This document shows, in pieces, positions 15,801 to 48,746 of a stretch of 64,000 nucleotides of DNA. Source of the stretch: Candidatus Micrarchaeia archaeon (lineage in GTDB: Archaea > Micrarchaeota > Micrarchaeia > Norongarragalinales > Norongarragalinaceae); contig JBAZPG010000003.1 in assembly GCA_041648335.1 (NCBI GenBank), positions 10,605 through 74,604 of the forward strand, read 5' to 3'. The notes beneath the pieces were generated by a model. That model was given only the letters and a program-made list of their open reading frames with translations. It did not search any database and was not told the origin of the DNA. A program made the translations under genes and the position numbers. The stretch's first letter is position 1; each line of letters opens with the position of its first letter.

Positions 15801-16434
15801 AGAGCAACGCGAAAGAGGAGTCCGCCGCAGCGGTCAACGCGGCGGCGTTGGGTGCATAGTCAATCGACGCCTGGGCTTCCTCGAGGGAAGAACGGGCGCG
15901 CTCGAAGAATGCTCCGAACGATTCGCCTTCGCCGTCCCGCGCGACGATCAGCGCCTCGGCTTCGGCAAGGTCCTCGAGGAAACCCGCCGCGGGGCCCGTG
16001 AAAGAGGAGTCCAGCATCTTGTCCAGCTTCGCGAGCCGGGCGTCCACCGAGGAGAGCCCGCTCTTCGCGGATAGCACCGCGTGGTTCAATCCGAGGGCGC
16101 CGTGCGTGTGGCAGGCGACCGAAGCGTAACGGTAGACGCCGTCGCCCGCGGGCGTAGCCGGGTTGAACGCGAGTTGGATGAAAGCGTACCAGGCGGCGTA
16201 ACCGAACTCCTGTTCCGCGAGGCGTGCCTCCTCAACCGCGGGGGAGAACGCGGAGTCCGCCTTGAGGTTCGCGGGAAGCTTCGGCACGTAAAGGAAACCA
16301 GCGCACGATTGCGGGTTCAGGTAGAGCGCGGAATAGTCTATGCGTGTTTCACTCAACAGGTAGGCGTAGCCTTGGAAGCCCAGCGCCGAAGCGAGGCAGG
16401 GCAGGAGGAGCAGCGCAGCGAGCGTTAAACGCAC
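12871..16434 (-). CDS. Giant (1187 aa) Ala/Leu/Glu-rich secreted, tail-anchored protein of unknown function
   Basis: GTG start and signal peptide LTLAALLLLPCLASALG. Long helical Ala-rich N- and C-terminal regions flank a beta-rich centre. C-terminal TM IVLGAFGTIALLALAWVF is followed by MRGKPAGSREL. Confidence 0.7.
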   Translation of the reverse strand: MRLTLAALLLLPCLASALGFQGYAYLLSETRIDYSALYLNPQSCAGFLYVPKLPANLKADSAFSPAVEEARLAEQEFGYAAWYAFIQLAFNPATPAGDGVYRYASVACHTHGALGLNHAVLSAKSGLSSVDARLAKLDKMLDSSFTGPAAGFLEDLAEAEALIVARDGEGESFGAFFERARSSLEEAQASIDYAPNAAALTAAADSSFALLSRETILFEEANAAIASLEEEYALSLDSTRAREAEAKQALRDGEALGLDAVSEDAFLAVGAGSKAATQYAVQSFERDLAEASASCSLGSWGLDEAERVWRSSDAGYASRAINALRDSAARLDSCSAMLVDYAARGYELEAALRERANAELAAALEATQAQPDAYAYSAALAQIQSSLDNADAKVPSLGGRVNLYLRLVNRALEIESQLGEWSGDAFHSKAFLEGEVERVAGVLAAAKSDGLNLEQEESRLSSISAALKPLGSTPRDAAALAFLASDLVAIEESAYAAARLEYADALEADYALVAPLESLFPVEKQADLLEASAFFASGWLDERAALGSLAGLRETLAELVEYSRVQAPNLIRARLVETLSISYGDGEPYAIGTPSQLSFTVRLENDLLLSYDGLLAVETAELSRCLEGAGLPAGFRYANNALLLDGVAEGEVFEFVALKTAVAATRAGSSVETLFARADEARVLKTVLFDADYPGFYELDEVTNGRVVAAESDQGAVEWSTDGKAFAFFEPGRHWFALEFSVANPVHVAASLSASGSFVELNYSLRNDYGSLEDFEYADYVDVGCEPRSVIRASSEGLVVAAAKARHSTVVLSVASFEKGATEWASIRFECDSIASAAEARVEYLEELAASLNASVEQELLALRGHLEDGRFDSALSASFELERALLAAPESQATADGLDGFKSEIAAFAATVSDDELRNALEAAAELGDYDSVSSALDSLASARVAALYAACKTCAGEAKGFLAVGKPLDALESCLKQEVLLAAEAASEAVERGEIEALLADYSSLRPDASAFLSSFATAFKTAPENQATARRSAQYSAASKQAAALEKSMKALDKLVADSSKANAASVEALLQDCRSASAGLSDALASLLSDAQAELALAGAQQKQFGDSGTAGALYAAQAEFEGGAYYSAYASANALRRQLLALPAQDGGNEYWRIVLGAFGTIALLALAWVFMRGKPAGSREL

Positions 16435-19936: not shown

Positions 19937-20089
19937 TCAGAGCATTTGGGCTAAGAGGACCACGATGATTACCGCGAGGGTGGCGCCCACGATTACGCGC
20001 GGGTCCACCTGTATCTTGCTCGCGTTGACATCGTAGAAGCGCATCAAGCCCGTGGAGGACTGTGGCGCGGTGATTTTCTCTTGAGCCAT
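19937..20089 (-). CDS. secG: Preprotein translocase subunit Sec61-beta (archaeal SecG)
   Basis: 50 aa from the internal ATG: MAQEKITAPQSSTGLMRFYDV...DPRVIVGATLAVIIVVLLAQML. It has the typical GLxRFY motif plus a C-terminal TM. Confidence 0.75.
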   Translation of the reverse strand: MAQEKITAPQSSTGLMRFYDVNASKIQVDPRVIVGATLAVIIVVLLAQML

Positions 20090-20108
20090 GACAAATGATT
20101 GGCTCACC

Positions 20109-20120
20109 AAATATTTAAAT
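20109..20120. promoter_or_regulatory. Central A/T box shared by divergent genes (starts at 20089 and 20147)
   Basis: AAATATTTAAAT lies in a 57-bp divergent intergenic region, 20-27 nt from both ATGs. Confidence 0.45.
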
Positions 20121-20146
20121 GCCTCGCGGGGCGTGTTTAATCCAGT

Positions 20147-21040
20147 ATGGCTTACGAACGCAACCCGCTCCTGGGCGAACTGCCCCACATCCTAGCCTTC
20201 ATCCTGCTCCTGGTGGTGCTCCTCGTGGTGCTCACCCGCTTCGGCTGGGTGCACTGCTCGCAGGTGCCCGGGAACTGGTGCGAGATTTACTGCGACCAAA
20301 TCCTGCGTTCGCACTCGCGCGTGATACTCCTGTCGGGAGACGAGGGCTTGGGCGACCCCCGGGCGCTCGAGAACGAGATACGCAGGGTGCGTCCTTACAC
20401 TTACCTCGAACCGTTCGACGCGGAATACCTGACCGCAGGCATGCTCGAGAACGCGGACCTGGTGATACTCGAGCGCATGCGCACGGTCTCGTTCACCCAG
20501 GCGCTCGCGATACGCGACTACGTGCAAAAGGGCGGCGCAATGATTTGGATCGGCGACGCGGCAACCGACTACTATGTTGACGACTACGAGCTAGCCAAGG
20601 CGCGCGCCATGGACGACGAGGCGGTTTACGCGGCTGAGGCGGGCGGCTATAATATTTCGGACGCGAACTACTACGAGCACGCGCTCTTGAACGCGTCCGG
20701 ACAGCGCGGGTTCTACTTCCTCTCGGGCGTGCTCGCCTCCGACTTCACGGCGGTGAACTCTACGGACGGGGGGGCGGGCTTGAAGATAGTTAACCGCAAC
20801 CACTTGATTGCCAAAGGGCTGTCGCCCGAATTCGGCATCCTCGCCTCGGAGTACGCGGTAGTCGCGCCCACCGCGCAGTCCGCCAACATAATCGCCATGG
20901 TGACCGCGGACGGCAAGGACTATCCCGGGATAATCGAAACGCGTTACGGCGGCAAAGTAATATTCGTGGCTTTCCCGCTCGAACAGGCGAACTCGACCAC
21001 GCTCTTGATGAACATACTCGACTACCTCGTGGCCTGTTGA
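20147..21040 (+). CDS. Membrane-anchored hypothetical protein with GATase1/ThuA-like motif
   Basis: N-terminal TM (ILAFILLLVVLLVVL). The motif ADLVILERM...ALAIRDYVQKGGAMIWIGDAA is shared with the pilin-like protein at 38442-39572. Confidence 0.5.
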   Translation: MAYERNPLLGELPHILAFILLLVVLLVVLTRFGWVHCSQVPGNWCEIYCDQILRSHSRVILLSGDEGLGDPRALENEIRRVRPYTYLEPFDAEYLTAGMLENADLVILERMRTVSFTQALAIRDYVQKGGAMIWIGDAATDYYVDDYELAKARAMDDEAVYAAEAGGYNISDANYYEHALLNASGQRGFYFLSGVLASDFTAVNSTDGGAGLKIVNRNHLIAKGLSPEFGILASEYAVVAPTAQSANIIAMVTADGKDYPGIIETRYGGKVIFVAFPLEQANSTTLLMNILDYLVAC

Positions 21041-21052
21041 AAAGGGTTAGGA

Positions 21053-21829
21053 TTACTTATTGAATGGTAGCCTGGCGGTTACCTTCCGCGCTATTCCTTC
21101 AAATTCTGGCAATTCAATCATTACTTTTTCCAAGTCGCGTTTCCAACGCGGTTCCAAGATAGCCATACGTTTTTCAAATGAAGTCGCAGTCAACTCCGCG
21201 GGAATTAATGCAAGCTTTTCTTCAATTAATTTTTTGTTGGGAACTACCATTTGTTCAAGCAAAAAATTGGCATCGTATAAATCTCGCGGTTTTGGTCGGT
21301 TGTATATTGCATGAATCTTTTCTGCAAAAATTTCTTCAAGCTGCATACAGGGCAATTGCGTTTTGGGTAAGGCATACTCGTTTGGATTCTGCACCAACCT
21401 ACTCACAGGCGGCCGCAACACTTGATTTTTACATGCAATTTCTAAATTTATCGAATCTATTTGCGGATATTCGCTTATTTGACTAGTATACTGCAATTTC
21501 AACGCAATATTTTCTGTTGTCCGTTCAAGACGGTTCACTTTTACGAAGAATACTCCGTCAATGACCTTGTTTTCAAATGCTTTTTTGATTTCTTGGTCAT
21601 ACTCGCTTTCAGTGACTAGAGAAAAATCCAAGTCTGAAGAAAATCGAAATTTGGGAAAATAACTTTTTTTAATGCAAGTTCCGCCCTTAAAAACGAGCTT
21701 TTCTGCCAGTTTTGTTTCGGCTATTTTTGAAAGGGCCACCGATAACACGTAATCTTTTTCAGCGTTGCCCAAGCTCATTCTTGTTTTTCGCGCAATTCGT
21801 CTAAACAACTCAATATCGAATTTATTCAT
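21053..21829 (-). CDS. abiEii: AbiEii/AbiGii-family nucleotidyltransferase toxin (DUF1814)
   Basis: FKGGTCIKKSYFPKFRFSSDLDFS matches the NTase motif of AbiEii. 258 aa, AT-rich codon usage, and it directly abuts abiEi (TAAATG junction). Confidence 0.8.
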   Translation of the reverse strand: MNKFDIELFRRIARKTRMSLGNAEKDYVLSVALSKIAETKLAEKLVFKGGTCIKKSYFPKFRFSSDLDFSLVTESEYDQEIKKAFENKVIDGVFFVKVNRLERTTENIALKLQYTSQISEYPQIDSINLEIACKNQVLRPPVSRLVQNPNEYALPKTQLPCMQLEEIFAEKIHAIYNRPKPRDLYDANFLLEQMVVPNKKLIEEKLALIPAELTATSFEKRMAILEPRWKRDLEKVMIELPEFEGIARKVTARLPFNK

Positions 21830-22615
21830 TTACTTCATTTCCTCGTCTAGGACGACGTTTAGTCTGAGCCCATATTTCGAATCAAATCTTCCTTTTGCCG
21901 GAGCGGAGGGATCGAGAAGACGGTAACCTTTGAATTTTTTCTTTTCAAAGTGTTTTAGTGCGTTTTTCAAATGCAAAAACTTTAAACAAAATGTTAATCT
22001 TCGTTCCGTCGCGCTATTTCCCGCCCTATCTGAGAAATATCTGACCGAAGCCCATTTTATTGAACGCGACTCCCGTCTAAGTGCATTACAAATTTCACCC
22101 AGTCCCGCACAATACTTGGGATGAGAAAAGCAGTCAATTACCAGCTTTTCTTTGGTTGCAATCTTAATATTTCCAACGGTTTGGTACCCGCAAAACTTTT
22201 TTTCGGAAATTCTTACGGGCACATAGGTAATTTCTTGAAATTTTTTCTTCGTTCTACTTTTAGTGGTTACCACTTGAATCGTAACAGGTAATTGAGTGGT
22301 CCAGCCATAATATTTTAGGGCAGCCAGAAACGAAATATATCCCTCTGGAAAATATTCGGCGGCCAACGACAATTCGTTCAATGCATAATCCTCTTCCTTC
22401 AAAGGAACTAGGAGATACCGTCCGCGTTTGATTCTCTGAACCCGACCTTTTACAACAAGTTTAGAAAGTGTTTTGCGAACCAAATTTTTTGTGGAATTAG
22501 GGAAAAACGAGTATACCTCGTTTATGTTAAACAATCTATTCTTATTTCTCTCCAAGGTGGAAAGAATTTCAAACTGAAATGCACCGATTCCATTTTTTTT
22601 GTGGTTAATTACCAT
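21830..22615 (-). CDS. abiEi: AbiEi-family antitoxin / transcriptional regulator
   Basis: N-terminal winged helix (FEILSTLERNKNRLFNINEVYSFF...LSKLVVKGRVQRIKRGRYLLVP) plus a C-terminal AbiEi-type domain. It sits upstream of abiEii in the canonical order. Confidence 0.75.
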   Translation of the reverse strand: MVINHKKNGIGAFQFEILSTLERNKNRLFNINEVYSFFPNSTKNLVRKTLSKLVVKGRVQRIKRGRYLLVPLKEEDYALNELSLAAEYFPEGYISFLAALKYYGWTTQLPVTIQVVTTKSRTKKKFQEITYVPVRISEKKFCGYQTVGNIKIATKEKLVIDCFSHPKYCAGLGEICNALRRESRSIKWASVRYFSDRAGNSATERRLTFCLKFLHLKNALKHFEKKKFKGYRLLDPSAPAKGRFDSKYGLRLNVVLDEEMK

Positions 22616-37624: not shown

Positions 37625-38053
37625 ATGCGCGGACAGGCTGCCATTGAATACTTGGTGATAGTGGCGCTGAGCCTCGCGGTCCTCTTGCCGCTGTGGTTCT
37701 ACGTGGACACCAACCGCACGCAAGTAGAGGGACAGCTGCGTTTGGGTTACGCCCAGCAGGCGGTGAACCGTTTGCGCGACGCGGCCGACTTAGTGTACGC
37801 CCAGGGTCCACCCGCCCAGATTTACGTCGAGGTGAACGTGCCGCCCGGAATCGCGAGCGCGAGCGTCTCCGGAAGGGCCATATCCCTGTTCGTGAACTCG
37901 CAGTGGGGTCCGAACGAGGTTTATGCGGTTACAGTTGCGAACGTGACGGGTTCGTTGGAGTCGCTTCCGCGGTTCCCGGGGCCACGCACCATACTCGTGA
38001 AAGCCGAACGGGGTTTCGGTTCGTACTACGTGAACGTCACCGACGGGGTTTAG
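37625..38053 (+). CDS. Pilin-like protein with class III signal peptide (142 aa)
   Basis: MRG/QAAIEYLVIVALSLAVLLPLWFYV: a basic residue-Gly, then QxxxE[YF]L plus ~20 hydrophobic residues (DUF361/class III signal pattern). Confidence 0.75.
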   Translation: MRGQAAIEYLVIVALSLAVLLPLWFYVDTNRTQVEGQLRLGYAQQAVNRLRDAADLVYAQGPPAQIYVEVNVPPGIASASVSGRAISLFVNSQWGPNEVYAVTVANVTGSLESLPRFPGPRTILVKAERGFGSYYVNVTDGV

Positions 38054-38056
38054 GCG

Positions 38057-38449
38057 ATGCGGGGACAGACGTCAATGGAGTTCCTAGCTTTCTTCGGCAT
38101 ACTCCTCGGCATCCTCGTGGTGTTCTCGATTTTCTCGTTTTACAGGAACGCCGAGATGCAGGCGCGCGCCGCGGATGCCGCGGGTTGGAACGTGTGCAAG
38201 CTCGTCGCGGGCGAGTTGAACATTGCAGCCGCGGTGGGCGACGGCTACACGCACTCGTTCTACCTTCCCGCGCGCCTAGAGAACTCGCGCGAGTACCTCG
38301 TGTGGCTGAACTCCGACGAAAAAACAGTGGAGGCCGCTTGGACTGGAGGCGACTGCCTCCTGCCCGTGACCGCGGCTTTCGCGCAAGGCGAATTCCATAC
38401 CGGGCAGAATAGCGTCTCGAACCGCGGCGGGGTGGTGTACGTTGAGTAA
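38057..38449 (+). CDS. Pilin-like protein with class III signal peptide (130 aa)
   Basis: MRG/QTSMEFLAFFGILLGILVVFSIF. It starts 3 nt after the previous gene. Confidence 0.75.
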   Translation: MRGQTSMEFLAFFGILLGILVVFSIFSFYRNAEMQARAADAAGWNVCKLVAGELNIAAAVGDGYTHSFYLPARLENSREYLVWLNSDEKTVEAAWTGGDCLLPVTAAFAQGEFHTGQNSVSNRGGVVYVE

Positions 38450-39572
38450 GCGCGGGCAGACGTTCACCGTGGACTTCATCGCGAGCCTCCTGGTTTTCAT
38501 TGCGATACTCTTGACCGTGAACGCGCTGTGGGCGCACATCCTGAGCGACTCGGAGTACGCGCGCCAGCGGGGCGAGAGCGCCGCGCTCACGGCTGCGATA
38601 GCGGACGGGTTGGTGCGTTCGCCGGGCTCGCCCGAGGATTGGACCGCATCCGACGTGGAATCCGCGGGTTTCGTGGGAAGCGAGGCGCTCGTGCTCGACG
38701 CCCGCAAGCTCTCGGAGTTCCTTAACGCGGATTACGAAACACAGCGCGCCGCGTTATCAACCGGGGGTTACGGGTTCCGCCTCGAATTCTGGAACGCGGA
38801 CGGTCCCGAGTACTCGGGCGTGCTGCGCGAGCCGATAGCGTATTATTCGTACGCCGAAGAGGACTTGCTCCCGCTCCTGGATTCGTCCACGCTGGAATGG
38901 GATTATTATTGGGGCGGCGAAGGGGTGTTTGTCGAACCGGCGCACTCGAGCGAGGGCTTTTTCTACGCGGGCGGGCAGATTGCCGCGCTCAACGTCCTGC
39001 TGGCGAACCAGTCGAATTACACCACAATAATCATAGAAGCCGCGGCGCTCTCGGATGAAGGGCGCGCCGCGCTGGACTTGGAATCACTCCGCGATTTCGT
39101 GGAAACCGGCGGCACCCTGGTATATGTGGGCGACGGGGATGCCGCGGCGCCAGTGATAGAAGAGGGCTTCGCAGCGGAATTCGAGTTCAACGGGGAAGGA
39201 CGCGCGGGCGAGGCAACGCGCTCGCTCCTGCTCTCGAACGCCACCGAGGGCGAAGCCGTCTCAATGCCCGACTTCGGTTGGGCTGCGGCTGCGGAGGGAA
39301 TCGACGCCGCGGTATTCGATTCCGAAAACCCAGGGTACGCGCTCGCCGGCTCGTGGGAGTACGGTGTGGGACGCATTTACTATGTTGCTGATTACGACGC
39401 GGACTTCGCTGCCAACGGCACGTTCAACATCGTGGGCGCTCCGTTGGAGTACGGCTTCGAGCCGTCGGGTGCGGGCGATGTTTTCGTGGTTAACCGGCAG
39501 TGCGCGATAGAGGCGGACGGGGTGCGGCGCTGGGCTGCGCTCACGCTCGTCTTGTGGGAGGCGCGGAGATGA
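38442..39572 (+). CDS. Pilin-like protein (376 aa) with class III-type N-terminus and GATase1/ThuA-like motif
   Basis: TTG start; SKRG/QTFTVDFIASLLVFIAILLTV. Internal LESLRDFVETGGTLVYVGDGDAA. It overlaps the upstream gene by 8 nt. Confidence 0.65.
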   Translation: MSKRGQTFTVDFIASLLVFIAILLTVNALWAHILSDSEYARQRGESAALTAAIADGLVRSPGSPEDWTASDVESAGFVGSEALVLDARKLSEFLNADYETQRAALSTGGYGFRLEFWNADGPEYSGVLREPIAYYSYAEEDLLPLLDSSTLEWDYYWGGEGVFVEPAHSSEGFFYAGGQIAALNVLLANQSNYTTIIIEAAALSDEGRAALDLESLRDFVETGGTLVYVGDGDAAAPVIEEGFAAEFEFNGEGRAGEATRSLLLSNATEGEAVSMPDFGWAAAAEGIDAAVFDSENPGYALAGSWEYGVGRIYYVADYDADFAANGTFNIVGAPLEYGFEPSGAGDVFVVNRQCAIEADGVRRWAALTLVLWEARR

Positions 39573-42500
39573 AGGGGCTCGTCTTCACTCTCGAGGCGCT
39601 CTCGGCGTTGCTGTTGCTGCTTACATTATCGTACGCGCTCTCGCTTTCGACTTCGACGAGCGCCGAACAGGGCTACTCGCACGAGGGTTTGCATACGCTC
39701 GCCCAGGATTCCATCGGCGCGCTCTCCAAGCTGCGCCTCCGCGACGTGCGCCGCGACCCTGCGGTGGCGCGCCTGTTCGAGGACGGCTCGTTCTCAGAGG
39801 CAAACAACAACGACAGCGTCATGGCCGCGCTCGGCTCGCTTTGGGCTACGAACAATACTGGAAACGCGACGCTTGCGCGCGAACTCGCGCAGACGCTGAT
39901 GACGCGGGTGATGCCCTCGCATGTGAACTGGGCGGTCGCATTCGAGGGGGACATAATCTACAACACGAGCGCGCCCGCTCCCGAGCGCTCGCTCGCCGCT
40001 AGCCGGCGCATCGTCTCGGGCGTGAACTCGTCGCAGCCGTCCACGGGATGCGTGGCGCGCGCCTTCCTCCAGAGGATTCGCGGGAAGAACGAGCGCGCCT
40101 ACGCGTTCTTCGGCGGCTTCGTGGGACAGGGGAACATCACCGCCGTGCTCCGCGGGATTTCCGCGGATGCGGCATTCAACAGCCTCGTCGTGGAGTTGAA
40201 TGCGGGGAACGACTTCAACCTCGTGGTGAATGGCTTCGATTGCGGGGAACTCCACCGCGCGGACCCCGCGGACAATTACAGCGTGGACTCCTGGACCGTG
40301 ACCGACGAAGAATGCCTCTCGCAACTTGATGCCACGGCGTCCGAGAACAACGTCTCCCTGAATTTCACGCAAGGCGGCTTGGCCTATGCCTACGTGGGCG
40401 GCGGCTTCGTCGAGGCGGTTTACGAGACCTCGGAGATAACTCCCACGTGGTCTACGATGCAACGCACTTATCTCCCGGGAATCCAGGGGCTCGCGAATTA
40501 TTACGGCTCGTTCTACGTGCCCGGACAGCTCACGGGGATAAACGCAACGCTGCACTTCTACAACAATTACACCTCTTACTTCCGCGTGGGCAACAAGACC
40601 GTCATGCACAACCGCGGCTCGGCGAACGAACAGGTGATATTCATTCCGTACGCGAACTTCTCCGCGAACTTCACTGACGCAGAACTGAGTTCGCGCACCG
40701 TACCCGTGCGCTTCGAGGTGTTCGCGAACGCAACCGGGCAGACGGGTTACGCGGACGTGGTGCTAATCACGGACGTGTCCGGGAGCATGAACTGGAAGAT
40801 GAGCACGGACTACCAGAACGGCGTAATCCGCGCGTGCGACAACCCCGCATTATACGATTCCGACACCCAGCGCTTGAGCGTGGCGAAGTGCGTGGACAAG
40901 AGCTTCGTGCAGGCGATACTCGAGGGCGTGGGCAACCAAATTGCCCTCGTATCGTTCAGCTCGAGCGTCTCCAGTTACACCAACTTCTCCACCGACTACG
41001 ATTACCTCGAATCCGAAATAGACGGCTATACCCAGGGCGGCGGCACCTGCATCGCGTGCGCAATAAACAAGGCGCGCGAACTCCTCGCGAACAGCGCCGC
41101 GAACCGCACGCGTTACATAATCGTGATGAGCGACGGCGTGCCCAACTACCGGAGCACCGAGTTCTGCGGGGAGGACTGGCGCGCGGTTTCAGCGAACGGC
41201 TCCAGCACCGTGCTCGCCGCGGACTACAACGCGATAATCGGGCGGCGCAACGCCACGGGTTGGGCGCTCTCGGATATTTCCAGCGCGTCACTGTACGGCG
41301 TCTCGCTTGCGGCATCGGACAACGCATTCGCAGTCGGCTCGAGCGGAAAAATATACAAGTGGAACGGCGCGGCGTGGGCGCAGAGCACGGACACCGGCTT
41401 GAACACACACTATGCAGTTGATTATTACAACCCGAACGTTGCTTTCGCCGCCGGCTCCACGGGAAAAGTGTTCAGGTGGAACGGGGCGGCTTGGGCCGAA
41501 AGCACGGATACCGGAGACAACGTGCACTACGCCGTGGACGTGCTGAACTCGAGCTGGGTTTTCACCGTTGGCTCCTCGGGAAAAATATTCAGGTGGAACG
41601 GAGCGGCGTGGGCGGAATCAACCGATACGGGCTCGAACACATTCTACGGGGTGGCAGTACACAACGGAACCCTGGGGTTCGCAGTGGGCGACTCGGGAAA
41701 GATTTACAGGTGGAACGGCGCGGCGTGGGCGCAGAACATAGACACCGGAAGCAACACACACTACGCGGTGGCAGCGTACAACGGCACGCTCGCGTTCGCC
41801 GTGGGCTCCTCTGGAATCATATACAAATGGAACGGCGCGGCGTGGGCGCAGGACGTGAGCCCGACTGGCGCGGCGCTGCGCGGAATCGCGTTCCAGAACG
41901 GCTCCGCAGCCAAGGCGGTGGGCAGCAACGTAATCCTGTCGTGGAACGGCTCCGGTTGGAGCGTGGAGCGCTCGTATGCGTGCGACCAGGGCAACTCCTC
42001 CACGGGCGTTAGCTGCAGCGACAACGACGACTGCTCGCTTTCGACGTCGTGTCCCTCGCGGAACGCGAACTATTCCTCGTGCTGGGCACACCAGGAATAC
42101 GGCGCCGTGGTGTACGCGGTGGGCTTCGGCCCCGTGGCATCGTGCGCATTCGCCAACGCGACGCTGAACGCCATAGCCCAGTGCGGGAACGGCACTTACT
42201 TCGCGAGCAGCGACGCGGCCGAACTAGCGGACTTCTACCGGAGCCTGGCGCGCACCATAGTCACGGAATCGAACGCCTCCCAGGTGCTAAGCATTTCCGG
42301 CTCCATCAATTCCACGCTATTCCCCGACTCGTTCATAGAGTACTCGTTCATTCCCGATGAGCCGGACTATGATTACGGGGACTTGAGCGTGACCGTGGAG
42401 AACCCGCCGCTTCCGTCGTGCTCGGGTTCGGTTTACTTCCCGACGCAAATCAAGCTCGACTCCGTACGCGTCACCTCGTACTCGGGGGACAAGTGGACTG

Positions 42501-43102
42501 ACTTGGTGCGCGTGCGTCCCGAAGGCGGGGCGTGGGTCGAGGCGTTCAACCTCTCGAAATACGCGATGGATTACGAGGGCTTGGGCGACCCGTTCGCCGT
42601 GCAGTTCAACACCTCGCTCATCACGACCGGCGGTTACAGCGAGTTCAGCGTGCGCACCGGGAGCGCGTACGGCAACGCGAGCGCGGAGTGCCCGTCCGAC
42701 GACCGCGTGATTTACACCGGGCGCCTGCGCGCCCAAGTGAATTATTCCGGCGTCTACCCGGTGTGCGCCTCGCGCAACGCCACGGTGTACTACGACCTGG
42801 ATTACGACAACGTGGCGGACGGTTCCATCGGGTTGACCATCGGGAGTGCGGGCCTCCCGTCCGCGGGCGAAGAGTATGTTGACGTTGCAGAACTCGAGCC
42901 GGGAACGAACGCGGTCGACGACGCGCTGGTGCGCCTCTTGGACGCGCTCAACTTCCTGGGCGACGGGGACGAACCGTCGGGCTCGGCCGCGAACCCGATT
43001 GACTTGAAGATAGGCGAATCAATCAACCTCACGGTGATAGTCGGCCAGGGAGTCCCGTTCATGTGGGGTCCCTCGGAAGTGTCGGTGATGGTGTGGAACT
43101 GA
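39569..43102 (+). CDS. Giant (1177 aa) pilin-fused adhesin: prepilin-like N-terminus, vWA domain interrupted by a 7-blade repeat propeller, C-terminal beta-rich region
   Basis: MKG/LVFTLEALSALLLLLTLSY at the N-terminus. MIDAS motif DVVLITDVSGSM, then IALVSFSS, GGTCIACAI and RYIIVMSDG. Seven ~39-aa repeats (GSSGKIYKWNGAAWAQSTDTG.NTHYAV) follow, and the vWA resumes with VVYAVGFGP...FASSDAAELADFYRSL. ATGA overlap with the upstream gene. Confidence 0.75.
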   Translation: MKGLVFTLEALSALLLLLTLSYALSLSTSTSAEQGYSHEGLHTLAQDSIGALSKLRLRDVRRDPAVARLFEDGSFSEANNNDSVMAALGSLWATNNTGNATLARELAQTLMTRVMPSHVNWAVAFEGDIIYNTSAPAPERSLAASRRIVSGVNSSQPSTGCVARAFLQRIRGKNERAYAFFGGFVGQGNITAVLRGISADAAFNSLVVELNAGNDFNLVVNGFDCGELHRADPADNYSVDSWTVTDEECLSQLDATASENNVSLNFTQGGLAYAYVGGGFVEAVYETSEITPTWSTMQRTYLPGIQGLANYYGSFYVPGQLTGINATLHFYNNYTSYFRVGNKTVMHNRGSANEQVIFIPYANFSANFTDAELSSRTVPVRFEVFANATGQTGYADVVLITDVSGSMNWKMSTDYQNGVIRACDNPALYDSDTQRLSVAKCVDKSFVQAILEGVGNQIALVSFSSSVSSYTNFSTDYDYLESEIDGYTQGGGTCIACAINKARELLANSAANRTRYIIVMSDGVPNYRSTEFCGEDWRAVSANGSSTVLAADYNAIIGRRNATGWALSDISSASLYGVSLAASDNAFAVGSSGKIYKWNGAAWAQSTDTGLNTHYAVDYYNPNVAFAAGSTGKVFRWNGAAWAESTDTGDNVHYAVDVLNSSWVFTVGSSGKIFRWNGAAWAESTDTGSNTFYGVAVHNGTLGFAVGDSGKIYRWNGAAWAQNIDTGSNTHYAVAAYNGTLAFAVGSSGIIYKWNGAAWAQDVSPTGAALRGIAFQNGSAAKAVGSNVILSWNGSGWSVERSYACDQGNSSTGVSCSDNDDCSLSTSCPSRNANYSSCWAHQEYGAVVYAVGFGPVASCAFANATLNAIAQCGNGTYFASSDAAELADFYRSLARTIVTESNASQVLSISGSINSTLFPDSFIEYSFIPDEPDYDYGDLSVTVENPPLPSCSGSVYFPTQIKLDSVRVTSYSGDKWTDLVRVRPEGGAWVEAFNLSKYAMDYEGLGDPFAVQFNTSLITTGGYSEFSVRTGSAYGNASAECPSDDRVIYTGRLRAQVNYSGVYPVCASRNATVYYDLDYDNVADGSIGLTIGSAGLPSAGEEYVDVAELEPGTNAVDDALVRLLDALNFLGDGDEPSGSAANPIDLKIGESINLTVIVGQGVPFMWGPSEVSVMVWN
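41245..41970 (+). repeat. Tandem 117-bp coding repeats (7 copies; blade repeats)
   Basis: The core GTGGAACGGnGCGGCnTGGGC recurs at 41359, 41476, 41593, 41710 and 41827 (exact 117-bp period). Degenerate copies lie near 41245 and 41941. Confidence 0.85.
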
Positions 43103-44049
43103 AAGGCGTGCTGTATTCTATAATCACGCTTGCACTCATTGCGCCCGTGGTCATGCTCGCGCTTTTCTACGCGCAATACTCCGCGGTAGAGAGCCGCTTC
43201 CTGGTGGCGGGCGTGGTGGGCGAAGAGCTCGCGAACTACGCTGAATCGATTGACGCGGACTTCCCCCGCGCGCTTTACGTGAGCAGTTACGCTGCGGTAG
43301 TGGCGTGCGTGAACCACGCGGTGTCCGGCTCCGAGGTGGACGACGCGGCGGCACGTATAGGCGAGCTGGCGGTGAACGGCTCGTTTGACGGGGTTCCGTC
43401 CGAAATAATGGGGGGAAGCCAGACGAACAACACGCTCTCGGCGTGGGTCGAGCGCCTCGAAGAGAAGGGCGGGGCGTACGGGCTCGCGGTGGACGCGAAC
43501 CTGGATTACTACAACGCCACGCCGTTGAACCACCGTTACCTCCTGGTGAACGCGAACATTTCGGTGAACGCGTCCTCGCCCGGCTACGGAATCGGTTTTG
43601 TGCGCGTTTATTCCGCGCAAGCCGTGGTGGATTTGGAGGGTTTGGAGGACCCGCTCCTCCCGTTGAGGACAATGGGCGCAGCCCAGCGCGCGATGCACTT
43701 CAATACCACGAATGTTTGGGGCGTCGCGGCGTTCGACGACGCGGCACAAAACGGGTGGTACTGGCCGTCCGCGGAGGGCGCGAGCTTCCTGGACCGCCTC
43801 GAGGGGCGCGACTACACGAGCGAACGCTACGCAGCCCAATCCGACCAGGTAATCGGAATCCAATCCATAGTTGACGTGGGCTACCTCGTGGGACAAGAGC
43901 TGCCCGCGGACTTGAATAAGAGCGTCGTGGATAACCTGTACTTCAACAACACCGCGCCTTCGGCCTGGTCCGTGGCGGGTTCGGGGCTGTGGTGGGCGTG
44001 GCTCGACACTGAAACCGCACAGGCGTTGGGTGTGGAACTCGAAAACTAG
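43093..44049 (+). CDS. Pilin-like protein (about 318 aa) with prepilin-type N-terminus
   Basis: The GTG at 43093 gives (M)ELKG/VLYSIITLALIAPVVMLALFY. It overlaps the adhesin gene end by 10 nt. The exact start is uncertain. Confidence 0.6.
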   Translation: MELKGVLYSIITLALIAPVVMLALFYAQYSAVESRFLVAGVVGEELANYAESIDADFPRALYVSSYAAVVACVNHAVSGSEVDDAAARIGELAVNGSFDGVPSEIMGGSQTNNTLSAWVERLEEKGGAYGLAVDANLDYYNATPLNHRYLLVNANISVNASSPGYGIGFVRVYSAQAVVDLEGLEDPLLPLRTMGAAQRAMHFNTTNVWGVAAFDDAAQNGWYWPSAEGASFLDRLEGRDYTSERYAAQSDQVIGIQSIVDVGYLVGQELPADLNKSVVDNLYFNNTAPSAWSVAGSGLWWAWLDTETAQALGVELEN

Positions 44050-44050
44050 G

Positions 44051-44058
44051 TTTTAAAA
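44051..44058 (+). promoter_or_regulatory. TATA-like box for the assembly-machinery unit
   Basis: TTTTAAAA lies ~32 nt upstream of the ATG at 44090, in the only gap (40 nt) inside the locus before the ATPase unit. Confidence 0.4.
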
Positions 44059-44089
44059 CTCGCGTCGCTAATGGGTGTGGATAAAACAT

Positions 44090-44869
44090 ATGGTCAAAGA
44101 GGACTTGGAAACCGTAATCGACCGCCTCTTGGATTACGTGCGCACCAACAAACTGTGCACCTTGAACCAGGCCGCGAAGGCGCTCGCGCTCGGCCCCTAC
44201 CAAGTCGAGAAACTCGCCCTCTTACTCGAGGAAAGCGAGCTCATGGAAGTCCAGTACACCCTGCTCGGCGTCAAGCTCGCGCCCCGCTTCCCCGAAAAGG
44301 AGGAAGAGAAGAAGAAGGCGGAGGTAAAGGCGAAGGCGAGCCTCATACTCCAGCAGACCCAGGCGCTCGAAAAGGAAGTCTCGACCTCCGAGCACCTCCT
44401 CGAGTTCATGGAACACGACATCACCCGCCGGCTGGACGTCGCGCGCTCGCTCTTGCAGCAGCTCGACCGCAAGAAGGATTACTCGCAGGCGGAACTGGCG
44501 TTCGTCAAGAAGGAAACCGAGGGCTTGTCCAAGCAGATGACCGCGTTCAGCGCGCGCCTCGCCGAACTGAAGGTGCGCGAGGAGTCGTTCGGCAAGGACG
44601 TTGATAAATTCGAGGCGCGCCTCAGCCGCGTCAAGACGAACGAAAAACGCGTGCTCACCGCGTTGGAGTCGCTGCTGTCCAAGCTCCCGAAACTCTCGCT
44701 TCCAAAATCAGGCAAACCCGCGCAGGCAAAGCCGGCGCACAACGCGGGCACGACCAAGCATGCTGCGCACCACAAGGCGGGCAAAATGAAGTTGCCCAAG
44801 CTCGACGGCGGCAAGGCGATCAAAAAGTTCTTCGCCGGCTTCGGCAAAAAGGGAGGCAAGCGCAAGTGA
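44090..44869 (+). CDS. Winged-helix + coiled-coil + Lys-rich-tail protein, pilus-locus accessory component of unknown function
   Basis: N-terminus VIDRLLDYVRTNKLCTLNQAAKALALGPYQVEKLALLLEESELMEV (wHTH-like). Long heptad-like central region. Tail KLPKLDGGKAIKKFFAGFGKKGGKRK. The stop overlaps the ATPase start (GTGA). Confidence 0.6.
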   Translation: MVKEDLETVIDRLLDYVRTNKLCTLNQAAKALALGPYQVEKLALLLEESELMEVQYTLLGVKLAPRFPEKEEEKKKAEVKAKASLILQQTQALEKEVSTSEHLLEFMEHDITRRLDVARSLLQQLDRKKDYSQAELAFVKKETEGLSKQMTAFSARLAELKVREESFGKDVDKFEARLSRVKTNEKRVLTALESLLSKLPKLSLPKSGKPAQAKPAHNAGTTKHAAHHKAGKMKLPKLDGGKAIKKFFAGFGKKGGKRK

Positions 44870-46365
44870 AGGTCCTCGAGAAATACACTGTGTCGAACGA
44901 GGGCGTGATCGCGGACGTCACGGTCGCCGAGCGCGAGGACGAATTCGTCAATTCTTACGAGTTGAGCCACACCAAGGTCAAAGAGGCGACGCGCATCGCG
45001 CTCAACTACCTCAAGGAGAAGATAATCGAGAGCATCCAGATCAAGGTCTCCGAGATGCTCGACCCGCGCGAGGCGGACAAGATACGCAAGCGCCTCGTCG
45101 AGCGCGCCCACGAGCTCATCCACAGCGAGCTCAGCGGTTTGAGCGAGGAAGAGGAAGGCGTGCTCGTGGGGCGCCTCATACAGGAGATGCTCGGGCTCGG
45201 CGAACTCGAGCTCGTGCTCGCGGACGAGAACCTCGAGGAAATCGTGGTAAACTCGGCGGACGAGCCGGTGTGGGTGTACCACAAGAAGCACGGCTGGCTC
45301 AAGACGAACGTGCGTATCCCCTCCGAAGAGCAGATTCACAATTACGCCTCGATAATCGGCAGGCGGGTCGGCAAGCAAATCACGAACCTGGACCCCCTCA
45401 TGGATGCCCATCTCTTGTCGGGTAACCGCGTGAACGCCACGCTCTTCCCCATCTCGACGAAGGGGAACAGCATCACGATACGCAAGTTCTCGAAGGACCC
45501 GTGGACCATCGTGAACATGATAGACAACAAGACGCTCAATTCCGAGGCGGCCGCGTTGTTCTGGCTGTGCGTACAGTACGAGATGAACGTGCTCGTGGCA
45601 GGCGGCACGGCATCCGGCAAAACATCGTTCTTGAACGCACTCCTCGCCTTCACCCCCCCGAACCAGCGCGTGATATCCATTGAGGACACGCGCGAGCTCG
45701 TGCTCCCGGATTTCCTGCACTGGACGCCGATGACCACGCGCCAGCCGAACCCCGAGGGCAAGGGCGAGATAACCATGCTCGACTTGATGGTGAACTCGCT
45801 GCGTATGCGCCCCGACCGCATCGTGCTCGGCGAAATCCGCCGTCAGCGCGAGGCCGAGGTGTTATTCGAGGCGATGCACACCGGGCACTCGGTTTACGCG
45901 ACGCTGCACGCGGACAACGCGCAGCGCGTGAAGAGCCGCCTGATAAGCCCGCCAATCGAGCTCCCCGAGAGCATGCTCGGCGCATTGCACTTGATAGTCG
46001 TCCAGTACCGCCAGCGCCGCACGGGAATCCGTCGCACCTTCGAAATCGCGGAAATGATGCCCACGAACGACGGCGTCTGCCTGAATCCGATTTACCGTTG
46101 GGACGCCCGCAAGGACAAGCTCGAGCAGACCGGCAAGTTCAAGCGCATCACCGAGGAGCTCGAGCTGCACGCGGGGTTCACCCACAAGGAGTTCCTCGCC
46201 GACTTACACGAGAAGGAGGCCGCGTTGAACTACCTGCGCGCGAGCAAGGTGGGGAACGTGAACGAGCTCGGCAGCGTCATAGGCACCTACTACCGCTCGC
46301 CCGAGAAAGTCATGGACGCGGTGAAGAAGAAGACGCCGTTGGCGAAACTGCTGGGTAGGACATGA
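44866..46365 (+). CDS. Type IV pilus/secretion ATPase (PilB/FlaI/TadA/VirB11 superfamily)
   Basis: Walker A LVAGGTASGKTSFLNALL, Walker B/Asp box RVISIEDTREL, and DRIVLGEIR...HTGHSVYATLHA (His box). 499 aa. Confidence 0.88.
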   Translation: MKVLEKYTVSNEGVIADVTVAEREDEFVNSYELSHTKVKEATRIALNYLKEKIIESIQIKVSEMLDPREADKIRKRLVERAHELIHSELSGLSEEEEGVLVGRLIQEMLGLGELELVLADENLEEIVVNSADEPVWVYHKKHGWLKTNVRIPSEEQIHNYASIIGRRVGKQITNLDPLMDAHLLSGNRVNATLFPISTKGNSITIRKFSKDPWTIVNMIDNKTLNSEAAALFWLCVQYEMNVLVAGGTASGKTSFLNALLAFTPPNQRVISIEDTRELVLPDFLHWTPMTTRQPNPEGKGEITMLDLMVNSLRMRPDRIVLGEIRRQREAEVLFEAMHTGHSVYATLHADNAQRVKSRLISPPIELPESMLGALHLIVVQYRQRRTGIRRTFEIAEMMPTNDGVCLNPIYRWDARKDKLEQTGKFKRITEELELHAGFTHKEFLADLHEKEAALNYLRASKVGNVNELGSVIGTYYRSPEKVMDAVKKKTPLAKLLGRT

Positions 46366-47228
46366 TAATACCGTTCAGCTTCGCGCCCCCAAAGCTCGTG
46401 ACAACCGCGGCGCGCAACTTCAAGAACGTGGGCGCTTTCCTCGCCTCCCTCAACCCGAACCTCAAGCAGGACTTGATACAGGCGGAGTACGGCGTGCACG
46501 CGCGCGACTACTGCGCCATCGCGTTCGTCGCCTCGGTCACGAACATGCTGGTAATCAGCCTGATGATACTCGTGATAGGGCTGGCGGCGCGCATTCCCCT
46601 CGTGGCCCCCGCGGTGTTCGGCGGGCTCATCGTCGCGTTCGCCTCGTTCTTCACGATAACCTACTATCCACGCATCATCTCCACCCGTCGGGGGCGCGAA
46701 CTCGATGAACAACTCATCCCCGCCCTCCGCCAGCTCCTCATCGAACTCAAGTCGGGCGTCCCACTGTTCAACGCCATGGCGAGCGTCTCGAACGACTACG
46801 GCGAGGTGTCCGAGGAGTTCAAGAAGATAGTCAAGAGGATAAACGGCGGAACGCGCGACCTCGACGCCCTCGCCGAGGCAACGACCGCGAATCCGTCCCT
46901 CCAGTTCCGAAAGGTGCTCTGGCAGATTTCAAATGCCCTGAAGGTGGGGTCGGACGTGGGGCGCGTGCTCGAATCCCTCGTGCGCGACTTGACGCTCGAA
47001 CGCATGGAACAGATAAAGCGCTACGGACAGGAGCTCTCGCCGTGGACCATGATTTACATGATGACCGCGGTAATCCTCCCGAGCCTGGGCATCACCATGC
47101 TCATGGTGATAATGTCGTTCCTGAACGTAGCGGTGCCGTCCATCGTCCTCCCGCTCGTCATAGTGTTCCTGGTTGGTTTCCAGTTGTTCTTCATGAACTT
47201 CGTGTCGACGAGGAGGCCGAAAGTCTGA
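46362..47228 (+). CDS. T2SS-F domain membrane platform protein 1 (TadB/TadC/FlaJ-like)
   Basis: TM helices flank a cytoplasmic T2SSF-like domain (LIPALRQLLIELKSGVPLFNAMASVSNDYGEVSEEFKKIVKRINGG...). ATGA overlap with the ATPase gene. Confidence 0.8.
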   Translation: MIIPFSFAPPKLVTTAARNFKNVGAFLASLNPNLKQDLIQAEYGVHARDYCAIAFVASVTNMLVISLMILVIGLAARIPLVAPAVFGGLIVAFASFFTITYYPRIISTRRGRELDEQLIPALRQLLIELKSGVPLFNAMASVSNDYGEVSEEFKKIVKRINGGTRDLDALAEATTANPSLQFRKVLWQISNALKVGSDVGRVLESLVRDLTLERMEQIKRYGQELSPWTMIYMMTAVILPSLGITMLMVIMSFLNVAVPSIVLPLVIVFLVGFQLFFMNFVSTRRPKV

Positions 47229-47229
47229 A

Positions 47230-48264
47230 ATGTTCGAACGCGCCTACCAACAGATTTCGTCGCTATTCCCGCGGGGCTTCGTGAACCACGTGGACAAGCT
47301 AATGTCCCAAGGCGGCTTCGAGGAAGTCCAACCCCGCCTGTTCATCGGCTTCTCCGTGTTCTTCTCGGCGTGCATCGCGGTAATCGCGTTCTTCTTCACG
47401 CCCTTCCTCACCGACAACCCGATATTCCATTACGCCGCCGCACCCGCGGCTTTCGCCTTGACGCTCAGCCTACTCTACATGTACCTGCTCTCGACCGCGG
47501 ACACGCGCGCCCGCCGCATCGAGGAAGTCCTTCCAGACATGCTCCAGATAATCTCGGCGAACATGCGCGCGGGGATGACAATGGAGAACGCCATCTGGAG
47601 CGCGGCGCGCCCCGAGTTCGGGCCACTACGCGACGAGATAAAGCGCGTGAGCGCGGACACCTTCGGAGGCACGCCCATACAGGACACCCTCCTCGAGATG
47701 ACTACCCGGGTGCGCTCGATCATACTCGAGCGCGCGGTCCGCCTCATAGTCGAGGGCATAAAACTCGGCGGCGAGATGAGCCAGCTCCTCGAGGAAGTCG
47801 CCGAGGACATAAAGAGCAACTACCAGTTGCAGAACCAGATCGCCACATCCACGCTGATGTACGTGATATTCATCGTGTTCGCCTCCGCGCTCGCGGCGCC
47901 GCTGCTGTTCGCGGTGAGCGTGTTCTACTCCGAGATGAACGAACAGATACTCGCAAAGCAAACCGAAAGCGGCGGCAACGGGATGGATATGGAGAGCATG
48001 GCGATGCAGTCGGGAATGGGCGGCTTGCCGGGAATGGGTTCGGGCACCGCGAAGTCGTCCATCAGTTCGCAGGACTTCTGGTGGTTCGCCATAGCCGCGC
48101 TCACGGTGACCAACTTCCTGGGCGCACTCATTTTGTCCACCGTACGCAACGGGCACGCCTTCCGCGGATTGCGTTACGCCCCGTTGATGGCGCTCGGGGC
48201 AATAGCCGTTTTCGTGCTTGCCAACGCAGCCATACGCACGGCTTTCGGCTCCATGCTATTCTAA
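47230..48264 (+). CDS. T2SS-F domain membrane platform protein 2 (TadC/FlaJ-like)
   Basis: VLPDMLQIISANMRAGMTMENAIWSAARPEFGPLRDEIKRVSADTFGGTPIQDTL plus flanking TM helices. It starts 1 nt after the previous stop. Confidence 0.8.
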   Translation: MFERAYQQISSLFPRGFVNHVDKLMSQGGFEEVQPRLFIGFSVFFSACIAVIAFFFTPFLTDNPIFHYAAAPAAFALTLSLLYMYLLSTADTRARRIEEVLPDMLQIISANMRAGMTMENAIWSAARPEFGPLRDEIKRVSADTFGGTPIQDTLLEMTTRVRSIILERAVRLIVEGIKLGGEMSQLLEEVAEDIKSNYQLQNQIATSTLMYVIFIVFASALAAPLLFAVSVFYSEMNEQILAKQTESGGNGMDMESMAMQSGMGGLPGMGSGTAKSSISSQDFWWFAIAALTVTNFLGALILSTVRNGHAFRGLRYAPLMALGAIAVFVLANAAIRTAFGSMLF

Positions 48265-48267
48265 ACC

Positions 48268-48277
48268 TTTAAAAATA
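48268..48277 (+). promoter_or_regulatory. TATA box dedicated to the candidate major pilin gene
   Basis: TTTAAAAATA sits immediately after the platform gene stop. A GGTGAT Shine-Dalgarno-like motif at 48327-48332 lies 9 nt before the ATG at 48342. Confidence 0.5.
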
Positions 48278-48341
48278 GGTGACGGGTAATGGAGAACGGG
48301 CGTTGGTTTTCGTAATAACCCGCAAAGGTGATGGAATAAAT

Positions 48342-48746
48342 ATGAAGAAAGGTCAAAGCGCGTTAGAGTACCTGGTCACTTACGGCTGGGCGATATTGGC
48401 TATCGTAATCATAGCCGCGGTATTATGGTACTTCGGCGTGTTCAACCCGTCCAAGTGGACGGAGAGCAAGCAGTGCGGCGGGCTCGCCTCGTTCTCGTGC
48501 GTGGACTACGTGGTCAACGCGACGAACGGCGTGACGCTCTCGCTCGGCAACAAGGTCGGGCGCTCCGTGATCGTTTACTGCACTGGAAACACACCAGTAA
48601 ACACCACGCTCGGCTTGACAACACCCGTTTCGTGCACGGTGCAGGGCACCGCGTCTGGCTCGAACCAGCTGAACTTCGACGTCGTCTACTACGACGCCGC
48701 ATCCGGCCTCGAGCACACGGACACGGGTTTCGTGAGCGCGGGTTAG
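48342..48746 (+). CDS. Type IV pilin-like protein, candidate major pilin (134 aa)
   Basis: MKKG/QSALEYLVTYGWAILAIVIIAAVLWYF (class III signal, Q at +1, E at +5). The small beta-rich body carries N-x-S/T sequons (NATN, NTTL). It has its own promoter and terminator. Confidence 0.8.
   Translation: MKKGQSALEYLVTYGWAILAIVIIAAVLWYFGVFNPSKWTESKQCGGLASFSCVDYVVNATNGVTLSLGNKVGRSVIVYCTGNTPVNTTLGLTTPVSCTVQGTASGSNQLNFDVVYYDAASGLEHTDTGFVSAG

Follow-up and report, generated by a model that had tools for sequence, protein, structure and literature searches.

A predicted minor-pilin-like protein of a Micrarchaeota type IV pilus operon with a seven-bladed propeller inserted into its vWA domain, and the exchange of such inserts within its family

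The predicted structure of CpaL/TadG from Caulobacter crescentus consists of a pilin-like module and a vWA domain (von Willebrand factor type A) split by a beta-rich insert, and the protein was modelled at the pilus tip together with two minor pilins (PMC12607857). A vWA module is carried by PilB, a modular type IV pilin of Streptococcus sanguinis (PDB 7b7p; PMC8179133). The interchangeable 'Tips' of the Myxococcus xanthus Tad pilus (KilL/M/N complexes) are encoded by minor-pilin gene modules, and a variable domain exposed on their largest pilin is thought to recognise the target cell (PMC12075869). In type IV filaments, C-terminal strand addition by an apical minor pilin (GspK, CpaL) licenses assembly (PMC13533445). 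Cryo-tomography of DPANN archaea reported pili-like filaments and named no adhesin (e.g. PMC11329633), and how these organisms find and hold their hosts is largely unknown. Here, a stretch of 64,000 nucleotides from a Candidatus Micrarchaeia archaeon (GenBank assembly GCA_041648335.1, contig JBAZPG010000003.1, positions 10,605 to 74,604 of the forward strand; hereafter the window) was analysed. The subject is the gene at 39569-43102, which an initial annotation had described from the sequence as an adhesin fused to a pilin, with a beta-propeller inserted into a vWA domain.

The open frame extends over 39500/39569-43102 on the + strand, and its product of 1177 amino acids (aa) begins with MKGLVFTLEALSALLLLLTLSYALSL. 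Its start codon at 39569 and the stop codon of the upstream gene overlap in the sequence ATGA, and its own stop codon is located at 43100-43102. Whole-chain modelling with AlphaFold2 (AF2), based on an alignment of 73 sequences, gave a mean predicted local distance difference test score (pLDDT) of 89.2. The following parts could be distinguished:

39569-43102, + strand: whole gene, a prepilin-like vWA/propeller protein of 1177 aa (open reading frame, translation, ATGA overlap, orthologues at E=0)
39569-39730, + strand: aa 1-54, class-III-signal-like N-terminus (MKG, then LVFTLEA and a hydrophobic stretch) forming an alpha-1-like helix
39731-40738, + strand: aa 55-390, a helical subdomain (55-118) and a sequon-rich beta region (119-390), from AF2 models
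40739-41158, + strand: aa 391-530, N-terminal part of the vWA domain from beta1 to beta4, bearing the MIDAS (metal ion-dependent adhesion site), from Pfam, alignment to solved vWA domains and conservation
41159-41977, + strand: aa 531-803, inserted seven-bladed Ycf48-like propeller with about 39 aa per blade, from AF2, Foldseek and Tandem Repeats Finder (TRF)
41978-42049, + strand: aa 804-827, Cys-rich return loop (C805, C816, C822), which the short forms of the family have too
42050-42274, + strand: aa 828-902, C-terminal part of the vWA domain (helix, beta5 VVYAVGFG, helix, beta6, helix), from the model and alignment to 4rck and Mfa5
42275-43099, + strand: aa 903-1177, two beta-rich C-terminal domains ending in a family-conserved terminal strand, from the model

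In the AF2 model, the N-terminal helix (2-28/32-54) is followed by helical structure to 114, a beta region at 120-385, the first part of the vWA domain at 395-521, propeller strands at 536-802, the Cys-rich loop at 804-827, the rest of the vWA domain at 828-901 and the two beta-rich C-terminal domains at 915-1176. A Foldseek search of the whole model against the PDB returned propeller matches only. The protein contains 18 Cys and 36 N-X-S/T sequons, compared with 13.8 +/- 3.3 sequons in shuffled sequences, and 15 of the 36 are situated within aa 55-390. Sequons and Cys both speak for an extracellular location, and the ectodomain is predicted to be heavily N-glycosylated. The sequon-rich N-terminal region and the beta-rich C-terminus recognised in the initial annotation could thus be confirmed by the counts and the model.

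The reading frame and each of the vWA motifs quoted in that annotation were found at their places: DVVLITDVSGSM at aa 396-407, IALVSFSS at 457-464, GGTCIACAI at 491-499 and RYIIVMSDG at 515-523 in the first half, and VVYAVGFGP at 847-855 and FASSDAAELADFYRSL at 878-893 in the second. Pfam analysis revealed VWA_2 (PF13519) with 50.2 bits (cut-off 27) and VWA (PF00092) with 39.4 bits (cut-off 23.8). These matches were confined to aa 396-527, corresponding to positions 1-117 of the 174 positions of the VWA profile, which is the coverage that a split vWA domain should give. When the profile of the 73-member family was aligned with the solved vWA structure 4rck, positions 398-529 corresponded to residues 19-135 of the chain and positions 826-881 to residues 146-215; both halves were aligned by Mfa5 (6tnj) in the same way. 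The two halves are separated by about 10 residues in 4rck and by about 300 in the present protein. The order of elements in the AF2 model is beta1-alpha-beta2-beta3-alpha-alpha-beta4, propeller, alpha-beta5-alpha-beta6-alpha, and together they form the full alpha/beta fold. The resumption of the vWA domain after the repeats, as originally proposed, is therefore supported by alignment of both halves.

The MIDAS is complete, with D402, S404, S406, T493 and D522. Among the 73 sequences S404 and D522 are invariant, while D402, S406 and T493 are conserved in at least 90%, and the perfect MIDAS of the initial annotation is sustained by this conservation. The propeller begins 13 residues past the MIDAS Asp D522, in the loop leading from beta4 to the following helix, so that according to AF2 the insertion falls between beta4 and beta5, the position at which the initial annotation had suggested looking for it. 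In the PDB, the family profile matched tip adhesins of pili or fimbriae, namely Mfa5, RrgA, GBS104 and the S. sanguinis pilin PilB. A separate observation concerns the cysteines of this domain. A CxxC motif (C494, C497; nt 41045-41059) directly after the MIDAS residue T493 is near-invariant. Conservation is likewise complete or at least 90% for C423 and C859, and at least 90% for C816 and C822 in the Cys-rich loop.

The insert itself consists of six clear 39-aa units, marked by WNG[AS][AG]W at aa 598, 637, 676, 715, 754 and 792, with a degenerate first unit ahead of them. The spacing of this motif is exactly 39 residues except for the last interval of 38. At the DNA level, TRF revealed a tandem array inside the propeller at 41345-41851, with a period of 117 nt, 4.3 copies and a score of 322. 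The AF2 model contains 28 strands in aa 536-802 (pLDDT 88-97), equal to seven four-stranded blades. Foldseek against the PDB placed the seven-bladed Ycf48 first, with a template modelling (TM) score of 0.69 and a root-mean-square deviation of about 3.8 A. Over about 285 columns the Ycf48 matches ranged from 0.64 to 0.70 in TM score and from 3.7 to 5.1 A in deviation, and generic WD40 propellers ranked after them. The seven repeats had been read initially as a seven-bladed propeller, and this reading agrees with the strand count and the fold match; a structure prediction lacking either the propeller or the vWA domain had been named as what would overturn it, and both are present in the AF2 model. 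No match of PF14870 (PSII_BNR) to the propeller of the present protein could be obtained even at E<=10, while the orthologue P0019 matched PF14870 with 40.4 bits (cut-off 27) and about 10 homologues carry a precomputed PF14870 label.

Blades 2-6 (41345-41851, aa about 593-761) share 49-69% mutual identity. They resemble one another as closely as each resembles its positional counterpart in the closest orthologue, and therefore the blades appear to have been homogenised. Concerted evolution or a very strong consensus constraint is suggested by these identities. In other lineages the identity between blades is much lower (0.27-0.65). A sequon occurs at an equal place in successive blades, in the hairpin from the first to the second strand (aa 660, 699, 738 and 777; nt about 41546-41902), and its position is kept in 31-40 of 44 propeller-bearing proteins. 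With canonical topology, this ring of sequons would place glycans on one face of the propeller and the SSGK and DTGxNxHY loops on the other, and the glycans may mask the face that bears them. Multivalent lectin propellers typically have blades that are nearly identical, and for this reason a multivalent, possibly glycan-binding site is plausible here, although speculative. Comparison of the propeller of the present protein with lectin, tectonin and PSII_BNR sequences gave nothing significant, and the lectin idea is conjectural; a profile search gave Tectonin 2 at E=0.18 and Toxoplasma TLAP2 at 2.5e-8.

Such an order of domains could in principle be an artefact, either because an error of assembly or a frameshift joined two genes, a concern already raised in the initial annotation for a sequencing error, or because of a chance open reading frame in G+C-rich DNA. 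Apart from the general possibility and a G+C content of about 61%, nothing was found that favours this. Independent assemblies from several phyla contain more than 40 full-length orthologues that are collinear over aa 2-1176, the vWA domain picks up again in frame beyond the propeller, and the pLDDT is 85-96 across both vWA/propeller junctions. A frameshift fusion was dismissed because dozens of orthologues from independent assemblies could be aligned end to end at 30-62% identity; an artefact of either kind has a negligible probability.

The family of this protein could be described from 120 listed homologues, all of which share aa 1 to about 506-528 and about 820 to 1177, whereas the stretch between is hypervariable in length. 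Its contents, named by Pfam labels, were as follows for increasing distance between beta4 and beta5:

33-95 aa: forms of about 860-950 aa in which the propeller is absent
172 aa: CUB
about 220-233 aa: module without identified fold
304 aa: a different repeat propeller
322 aa: the present protein
354-454, 531 and about 640-650 aa: modules without identified fold
1045 aa: CARDB repeats

By anchoring on the MIDAS motifs, three insertion sites could be defined, every one of them in a MIDAS-bearing loop. The first, after DxSxS, contains FG-GAP repeats in the homologue P0079. The second, from the Thr loop to beta4, contains CUB and most of the large modules without identified fold, and the third, after the beta4 Asp, contains the propeller forms. 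The inserts at these sites measure 150-1045 aa, and those without identified fold 150-650 aa. Judged from these alignments, modules are swapped at the insertion site throughout the family, and the propeller is one of several cassettes. In a Norongarragalinales metagenome-assembled genome (MAG; P0027/L046), the shared scaffold is 46-49% identical, the propeller is lacking and a module of about 500 aa without identified fold precedes beta4, so that lineages which are fairly close differ both in the cassette and in where it is inserted. Between close orthologues the propeller has 45% identity and the vWA domain 62-70%, the propeller being lowest among the large ectodomain segments. In a Micrarchaeota MAG (locus L005, 4260-13702; also L017 and L020), two paralogues are encoded in tandem in one pilus operon. 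A 1914-aa CARDB form stands directly upstream of a 1233-aa propeller form, and the two differ mainly in their cassettes. Since the three insertion sites are MIDAS loops, the cassette is thus the putative specificity module on a conserved scaffold, and a swapped module on such a scaffold is the pattern expected of a determinant of specificity for host or substrate surfaces.

A profile of the N-domain (A2, aa 1-392) matched 512, 818 and 1193 clusters (50% identity) at E<=1e-30, 1e-10 and 1e-3, respectively. The matches were always at the protein N-terminus, in proteins of up to 2640 aa. Data with one genome per species contained 371 stretches in which a relative is encoded. Of these loci, the 78 best all belong to DPANN (Micr-, Aenigmat-, Nano-, Woese- and Pacearchaeota) or Altiarchaeota, apart from two exceptions. 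The nearest named relative is from Ca. Norongarragalina meridionalis, with 53% identity. The two exceptions, from bins labelled as a bacterium of the CPR (Candidatus Kaiserbacteria MAG, L048) and as a methanogen (Methanosarcinales MAG, L082), are short contigs with the typical DPANN five-gene module described below; most likely they were binned wrongly and do not reflect genuine transfer.

The N-terminus was examined by inspection and modelling. The protein starts with MKG followed by LVFTLEALSALLLLLTLSYALSL, a short basic leader to Gly and then a hydrophobic stretch; members of the family follow the pattern [KR]G-x-x-F-[TS]-x-[DE]-A with about 20 hydrophobic residues. A separate model of aa 1-392 (pLDDT 78) gave a single continuous helix at 2-54, the length of pilin alpha-1. 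The prepilin-like N-terminus proposed initially thus agrees with the motif and the helix. Of the further claim of a fusion to a pilin anchor, the pilin-like N-terminal helix stands, while a pilin globular fold could not be recognised by Foldseek. The term 'pilin-like' is therefore based on the N-terminal motif, the helix and the gene context, not on a recognised pilin fold. DUF7288 matched the N-terminus weakly (E=0.09), and two neighbouring small proteins scored just under the cut-off of Class_IIIsignal. Foldseek of the N-terminal model gave weak jelly-roll, galactose-binding, malectin and BcsB-type matches with TM scores of at most 0.23. The N-domain is the signature of the family and contains an invariant FFGGFxGQGN motif.

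The opposite end of the protein is conserved as well. Most members end in ..VPxxWGPxxxxVxVW and zero to two further residues, and a terminal hydrophobic pattern ending in W, F or Y was present in 86 of the 120 sequences. Residues 133-172 were disordered in the N-only model and formed strands in the whole-chain model. A conserved C-terminal strand and a context-dependent segment would fit a role in pilin-like assembly, and an addition of the terminal strand like that of GspK and CpaL may occur in the present protein.

The gene is the fourth of a + strand operon at 37625-48746, whose other members are listed below with their frequency in a synteny scan, in which 82 loci were searched with the proteins of the window:

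37625-38053, + strand: minor-pilin-like gene 1, 142 aa, MRGQAAIEYL..., Class_IIIsignal below threshold (E=0.0015), syntenic in 59/82 loci
38057-38449, + strand: minor-pilin-like gene 2, 130 aa, MRGQTSMEFL..., syntenic in 48/82 loci
38442-39572, + strand: minor-pilin-like gene 3, 376 aa, MSKRGQTFTVDF..., weak DUF4350 match below cut-off, syntenic in 53/82 loci
43093-44049, + strand: prepilin-like gene 5, 318 aa, M-ELKG followed by VLYSIITLAL..., syntenic in 65/82 loci
44075-44869, + strand: coiled-coil protein, 264 aa, weak SMC and CENP-F coiled-coil matches, syntenic in 26/82 loci
44866-46365, + strand: pilus assembly ATPase, FlaI/TadA-like, T2SSE (PF00437, 9e-33)
46362-47228 and 47230-48264, + strand: platform protein as two genes, each a T2SSF/TadC/FlaJ half (PF00482)
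48342-48746, + strand: candidate major pilin, 134 aa, MKKGQSALEYL..., with an orthologue of 131 aa in L001, present in 37/82 loci

The ATPase was matched by the NCBIfam models of FlaI (4e-85) and the TadA family (1e-59), both under the equivalog cut-offs. The platform genes match the UpsF halves 32-247 and 249-433, and the same split was found in loci L001, L003 and L005. Gene 5 overlaps the end of the large gene by 10 nt, as it does in L001, where the same gene order is encoded at 54% identity. An N-terminus of the type [KR]G-hydrophobic-[DE] is common to all five proteins of the module formed by genes 1 to 3, the large gene and gene 5. The five-gene module with class-III-like N-termini is kept in L001, in L003 with a propeller-less form of 863 aa and in L004 with a form of 1269 aa. 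An ATPase occurs within about 8 kb of the large gene in 50/82 loci, although many of the contigs scanned are truncated. The adjacent ATPase, split platform and pilin genes support a type IV pilus operon as the setting, and homologues beside pilus ATPases, for which a search in other archaea had been recommended, do occur elsewhere. The product of gene 3 is much larger in the present locus and L001 (376-384 aa) than in other lineages (154-180 aa), and the module may have a second variable component in this protein.

The reading preferred here takes the protein for the large subunit, minor-pilin-like in nature, of a type IV pilus of DPANN (Micrarchaeota/Norongarragalinales-type) archaea, most likely displayed at the tip as its adhesin; a probability of about 0.6 was assigned to it. 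The N-terminus with its helix of about 53 residues would enter the membrane and would be cleaved by a prepilin peptidase. Together with the other four prepilin-like products of the module, the protein would then form a bundle that acts as a priming or tip complex, and the FlaI/TadA-like ATPase and the split TadC/FlaJ-like platform would extend this complex with the major pilin of 48342-48746. The N-glycosylated ectodomain may act as the scaffold, comprising the helical and beta N-domain, the vWA domain, the two C-terminal beta domains and the terminal strand. A ligand could be bound jointly by the vWA MIDAS and the module grafted into the surrounding loops, which in this organism would be the seven-bladed Ycf48-like propeller. 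The grafted propeller is accordingly a good candidate for the part that recognises the attachment target.

Several results weigh against a tip adhesin. The predicted template modelling score of the whole-chain model was 0.58. Signal cleavage, location at the tip, adhesion and the nature of the ligand are predictions for a family known here from genes and models alone. The acidic residue stands at +6 after the Gly, compared with +5 in bacteria. None of the pilin, Tad or class-III models in Pfam and NCBIfam matched the protein above threshold, and no pilin globular head was found by Foldseek of the N-terminal model. A prepilin peptidase (peptidase A24) was absent among about 40 window ORFs scanned, and in L004 no ATPase adjoins the five-gene module. 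Three of these results, the missing pilin fold, the missing pilin model and the arrangement in L004, would also suit a membrane-anchored surface adhesin or a component of the pilus base, which retains its signal as an uncleaved anchor, never enters the filament, and anchors or regulates the pilus machine or binds a ligand at the cell surface. [quoted passage not shown] TadG has since been reported in pilus preparations, however, and CpaL was modelled at the tip (PMC12607857). In addition, the N-terminal motif is present in all five module proteins, the gene order is conserved and minor-pilin-like, and the extreme C-terminus is conserved. A permanent membrane anchor is thus considered unlikely.

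If the subunit does reach the tip, adhesion might still not be its main role. A priming or mechanosensing subunit, as proposed for CpaL and PilY1, would license filament assembly or sense tension through its vWA domain, and the inserts would be secondary decorations. The conserved C-terminal strand and scaffold suit a role in assembly, which strand addition licenses in other type IV filaments (PMC13533445), and deletion of CpaL altered surface sensing while attachment was not reduced (PMC12607857). A fully conserved MIDAS with variable modules in its three loops is nevertheless hard to explain without ligand binding, and the tandem paralogues differ mainly in the cassette; this second possibility was regarded as improbable. 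The tip adhesin remains the preferred reading. Separately, an intracellular regulatory vWA protein resembling ArnB (PMC4858521) was ruled out by the N-terminal membrane helix, the 36 sequons, the 18 Cys and the prepilin-like neighbours.

Among described proteins, the closest design by analogy is bacterial TadG/CpaL, and the likeness to TadG drawn in the initial annotation holds well, since CpaL shares the pilin-like module and the split vWA domain (PMC12607857). Both proteins combine a prepilin-like N-terminus with a full-MIDAS vWA domain that is split by an inserted beta-rich domain, and the genes of both stand beside other minor pilins, a TadA-type ATPase and two TadB/C-type platform genes. 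The extreme C-terminus, of demonstrated functional importance in CpaL (PMC12607857, PMC13533445), is conserved in the present protein. The archaeal protein is, however, about twice the size, with its own N-domain of about 390 aa and C-terminal domains of about 275 aa, and its insert is a seven-bladed propeller after beta4, whereas that of CpaL consists of two small barrels after the DxSxS loop. TadG/CpaL is bacterial, while the present protein is archaeal, predicted to be heavily N-glycosylated and equipped with a cassette that varies within the family. No TadE/G-like, Tad or NCBIfam TadG model in Pfam or NCBIfam matched it, and tblastn of a short-form homologue against plasmids returned two generic vWA or S-layer-homology (SLH) matches only and no TadG. 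The arrangement had also been called an independent, previously uncharacterised archaeal solution. A literature search, which was not exhaustive, found no description of this archaeal family, so the second adjective stands; independent invention is unproven, since Tad pili also have minor pilins with a split vWA domain. Tad pili are themselves thought to share ancestry with archaeal pili. What is new here is that the propeller is only one alternative among no insert, CUB, FG-GAP, CARDB and other modules.

The likeness to PilY1 is weaker than the initial annotation implied. PilY1/PilC proteins are likewise large and pilus-associated, combine a seven-bladed propeller with a vWA domain (the latter in P. 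aeruginosa), are encoded with minor pilins and are proposed to be at the tip. PilY1 is not a pilin, however, and its conserved C-terminal propeller (PF05567/IPR008707) is the carrier that docks on minor pilins while its N-terminal part varies; in the present protein the propeller is the variable passenger and the vWA scaffold the conserved part. Membership of the PilY1 family was rejected, as no PF05567/PilC profile matched, the propeller lies within the chain and is missing from many family members, and its fold was matched by Ycf48, with no PilY1 structure among the top 50 Foldseek fold matches.

Other tip proteins share single elements of the design. PilB also combines a pilin N-terminus with a MIDAS vWA domain as a module grafted on a pilin for display at the tip, and its vWA domain was matched by the family profile at E=3e-4. 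It is bacterial, and differs in its canonical small pilin fold, its uninterrupted vWA domain and the lack of nested or extra scaffold domains. In RrgA and GBS104, arms are inserted beside the MIDAS. RrgA (2ww8), GBS104 (3tvy) and Mfa5 (6tnj/6to1) are tip adhesins built around a MIDAS vWA domain and gave the best PDB sequence matches, but they are assembled by sortase or by type V strand exchange, and their arms are short and not whole swappable domains. The Myxococcus Tips exist in several alternative versions per genome, comparable to the tandem paralogues in L005; their domain content is different, no vWA-scaffold logic has been described for them, and they belong to a bacterial killing apparatus resembling a type III secretion system. 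The integrin head similarly nests a seven-bladed propeller and a MIDAS vWA domain in one chain, with the vWA I-domain inserted into the propeller of the alpha subunit, the reverse of the present order, and no evidence of common origin was found.

A wider proposal would make the family a general device of DPANN and Altiarchaeota type IV pili for recognising hosts or surfaces, in which a conserved, pilin-anchored vWA scaffold carries interchangeable domains on its MIDAS face, the cassette sets the host or substrate of a given ultrasmall archaeon, and in the propeller forms propeller and MIDAS form one composite site. This is put forward tentatively and is rather doubtful as a whole; if true, the composite site would be an integrin-head-like pairing with opposite nesting. 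The interest of the locus lies less in a single nested propeller than in family-wide swapping at the MIDAS face. For the attachment of DPANN to their hosts, the protein is a concrete and widely conserved candidate (371 species genomes, 512 clusters) with a testable logic of a conserved scaffold, an intact predicted metal site and a swappable module. It would extend to archaea the 'modular pilin' principle of PilB, TadG/CpaL and the Kil tips, and the natural series of insertions into one vWA domain may be of use for protein engineering and evolutionary study.

Elsewhere in the window, an AbiEii toxin/AbiEi antitoxin pair is encoded at 21056-22615 on the - strand, in the stretch of lowest G+C (0.495 at 20001-22000, about 0.60 elsewhere in the window), and was probably acquired horizontally. 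Three more giant surface proteins were predicted at 225-4304, 5896-9789 and 12871-16434, all on the - strand; all three have a signal peptide and, at the C-terminus, a membrane anchor bearing a basic tail. Two of them (1297 and 1187 aa) gave no Pfam match, and the other, of 1359 aa, is right-handed beta-helix/NosD-like and contains 60 sequons.

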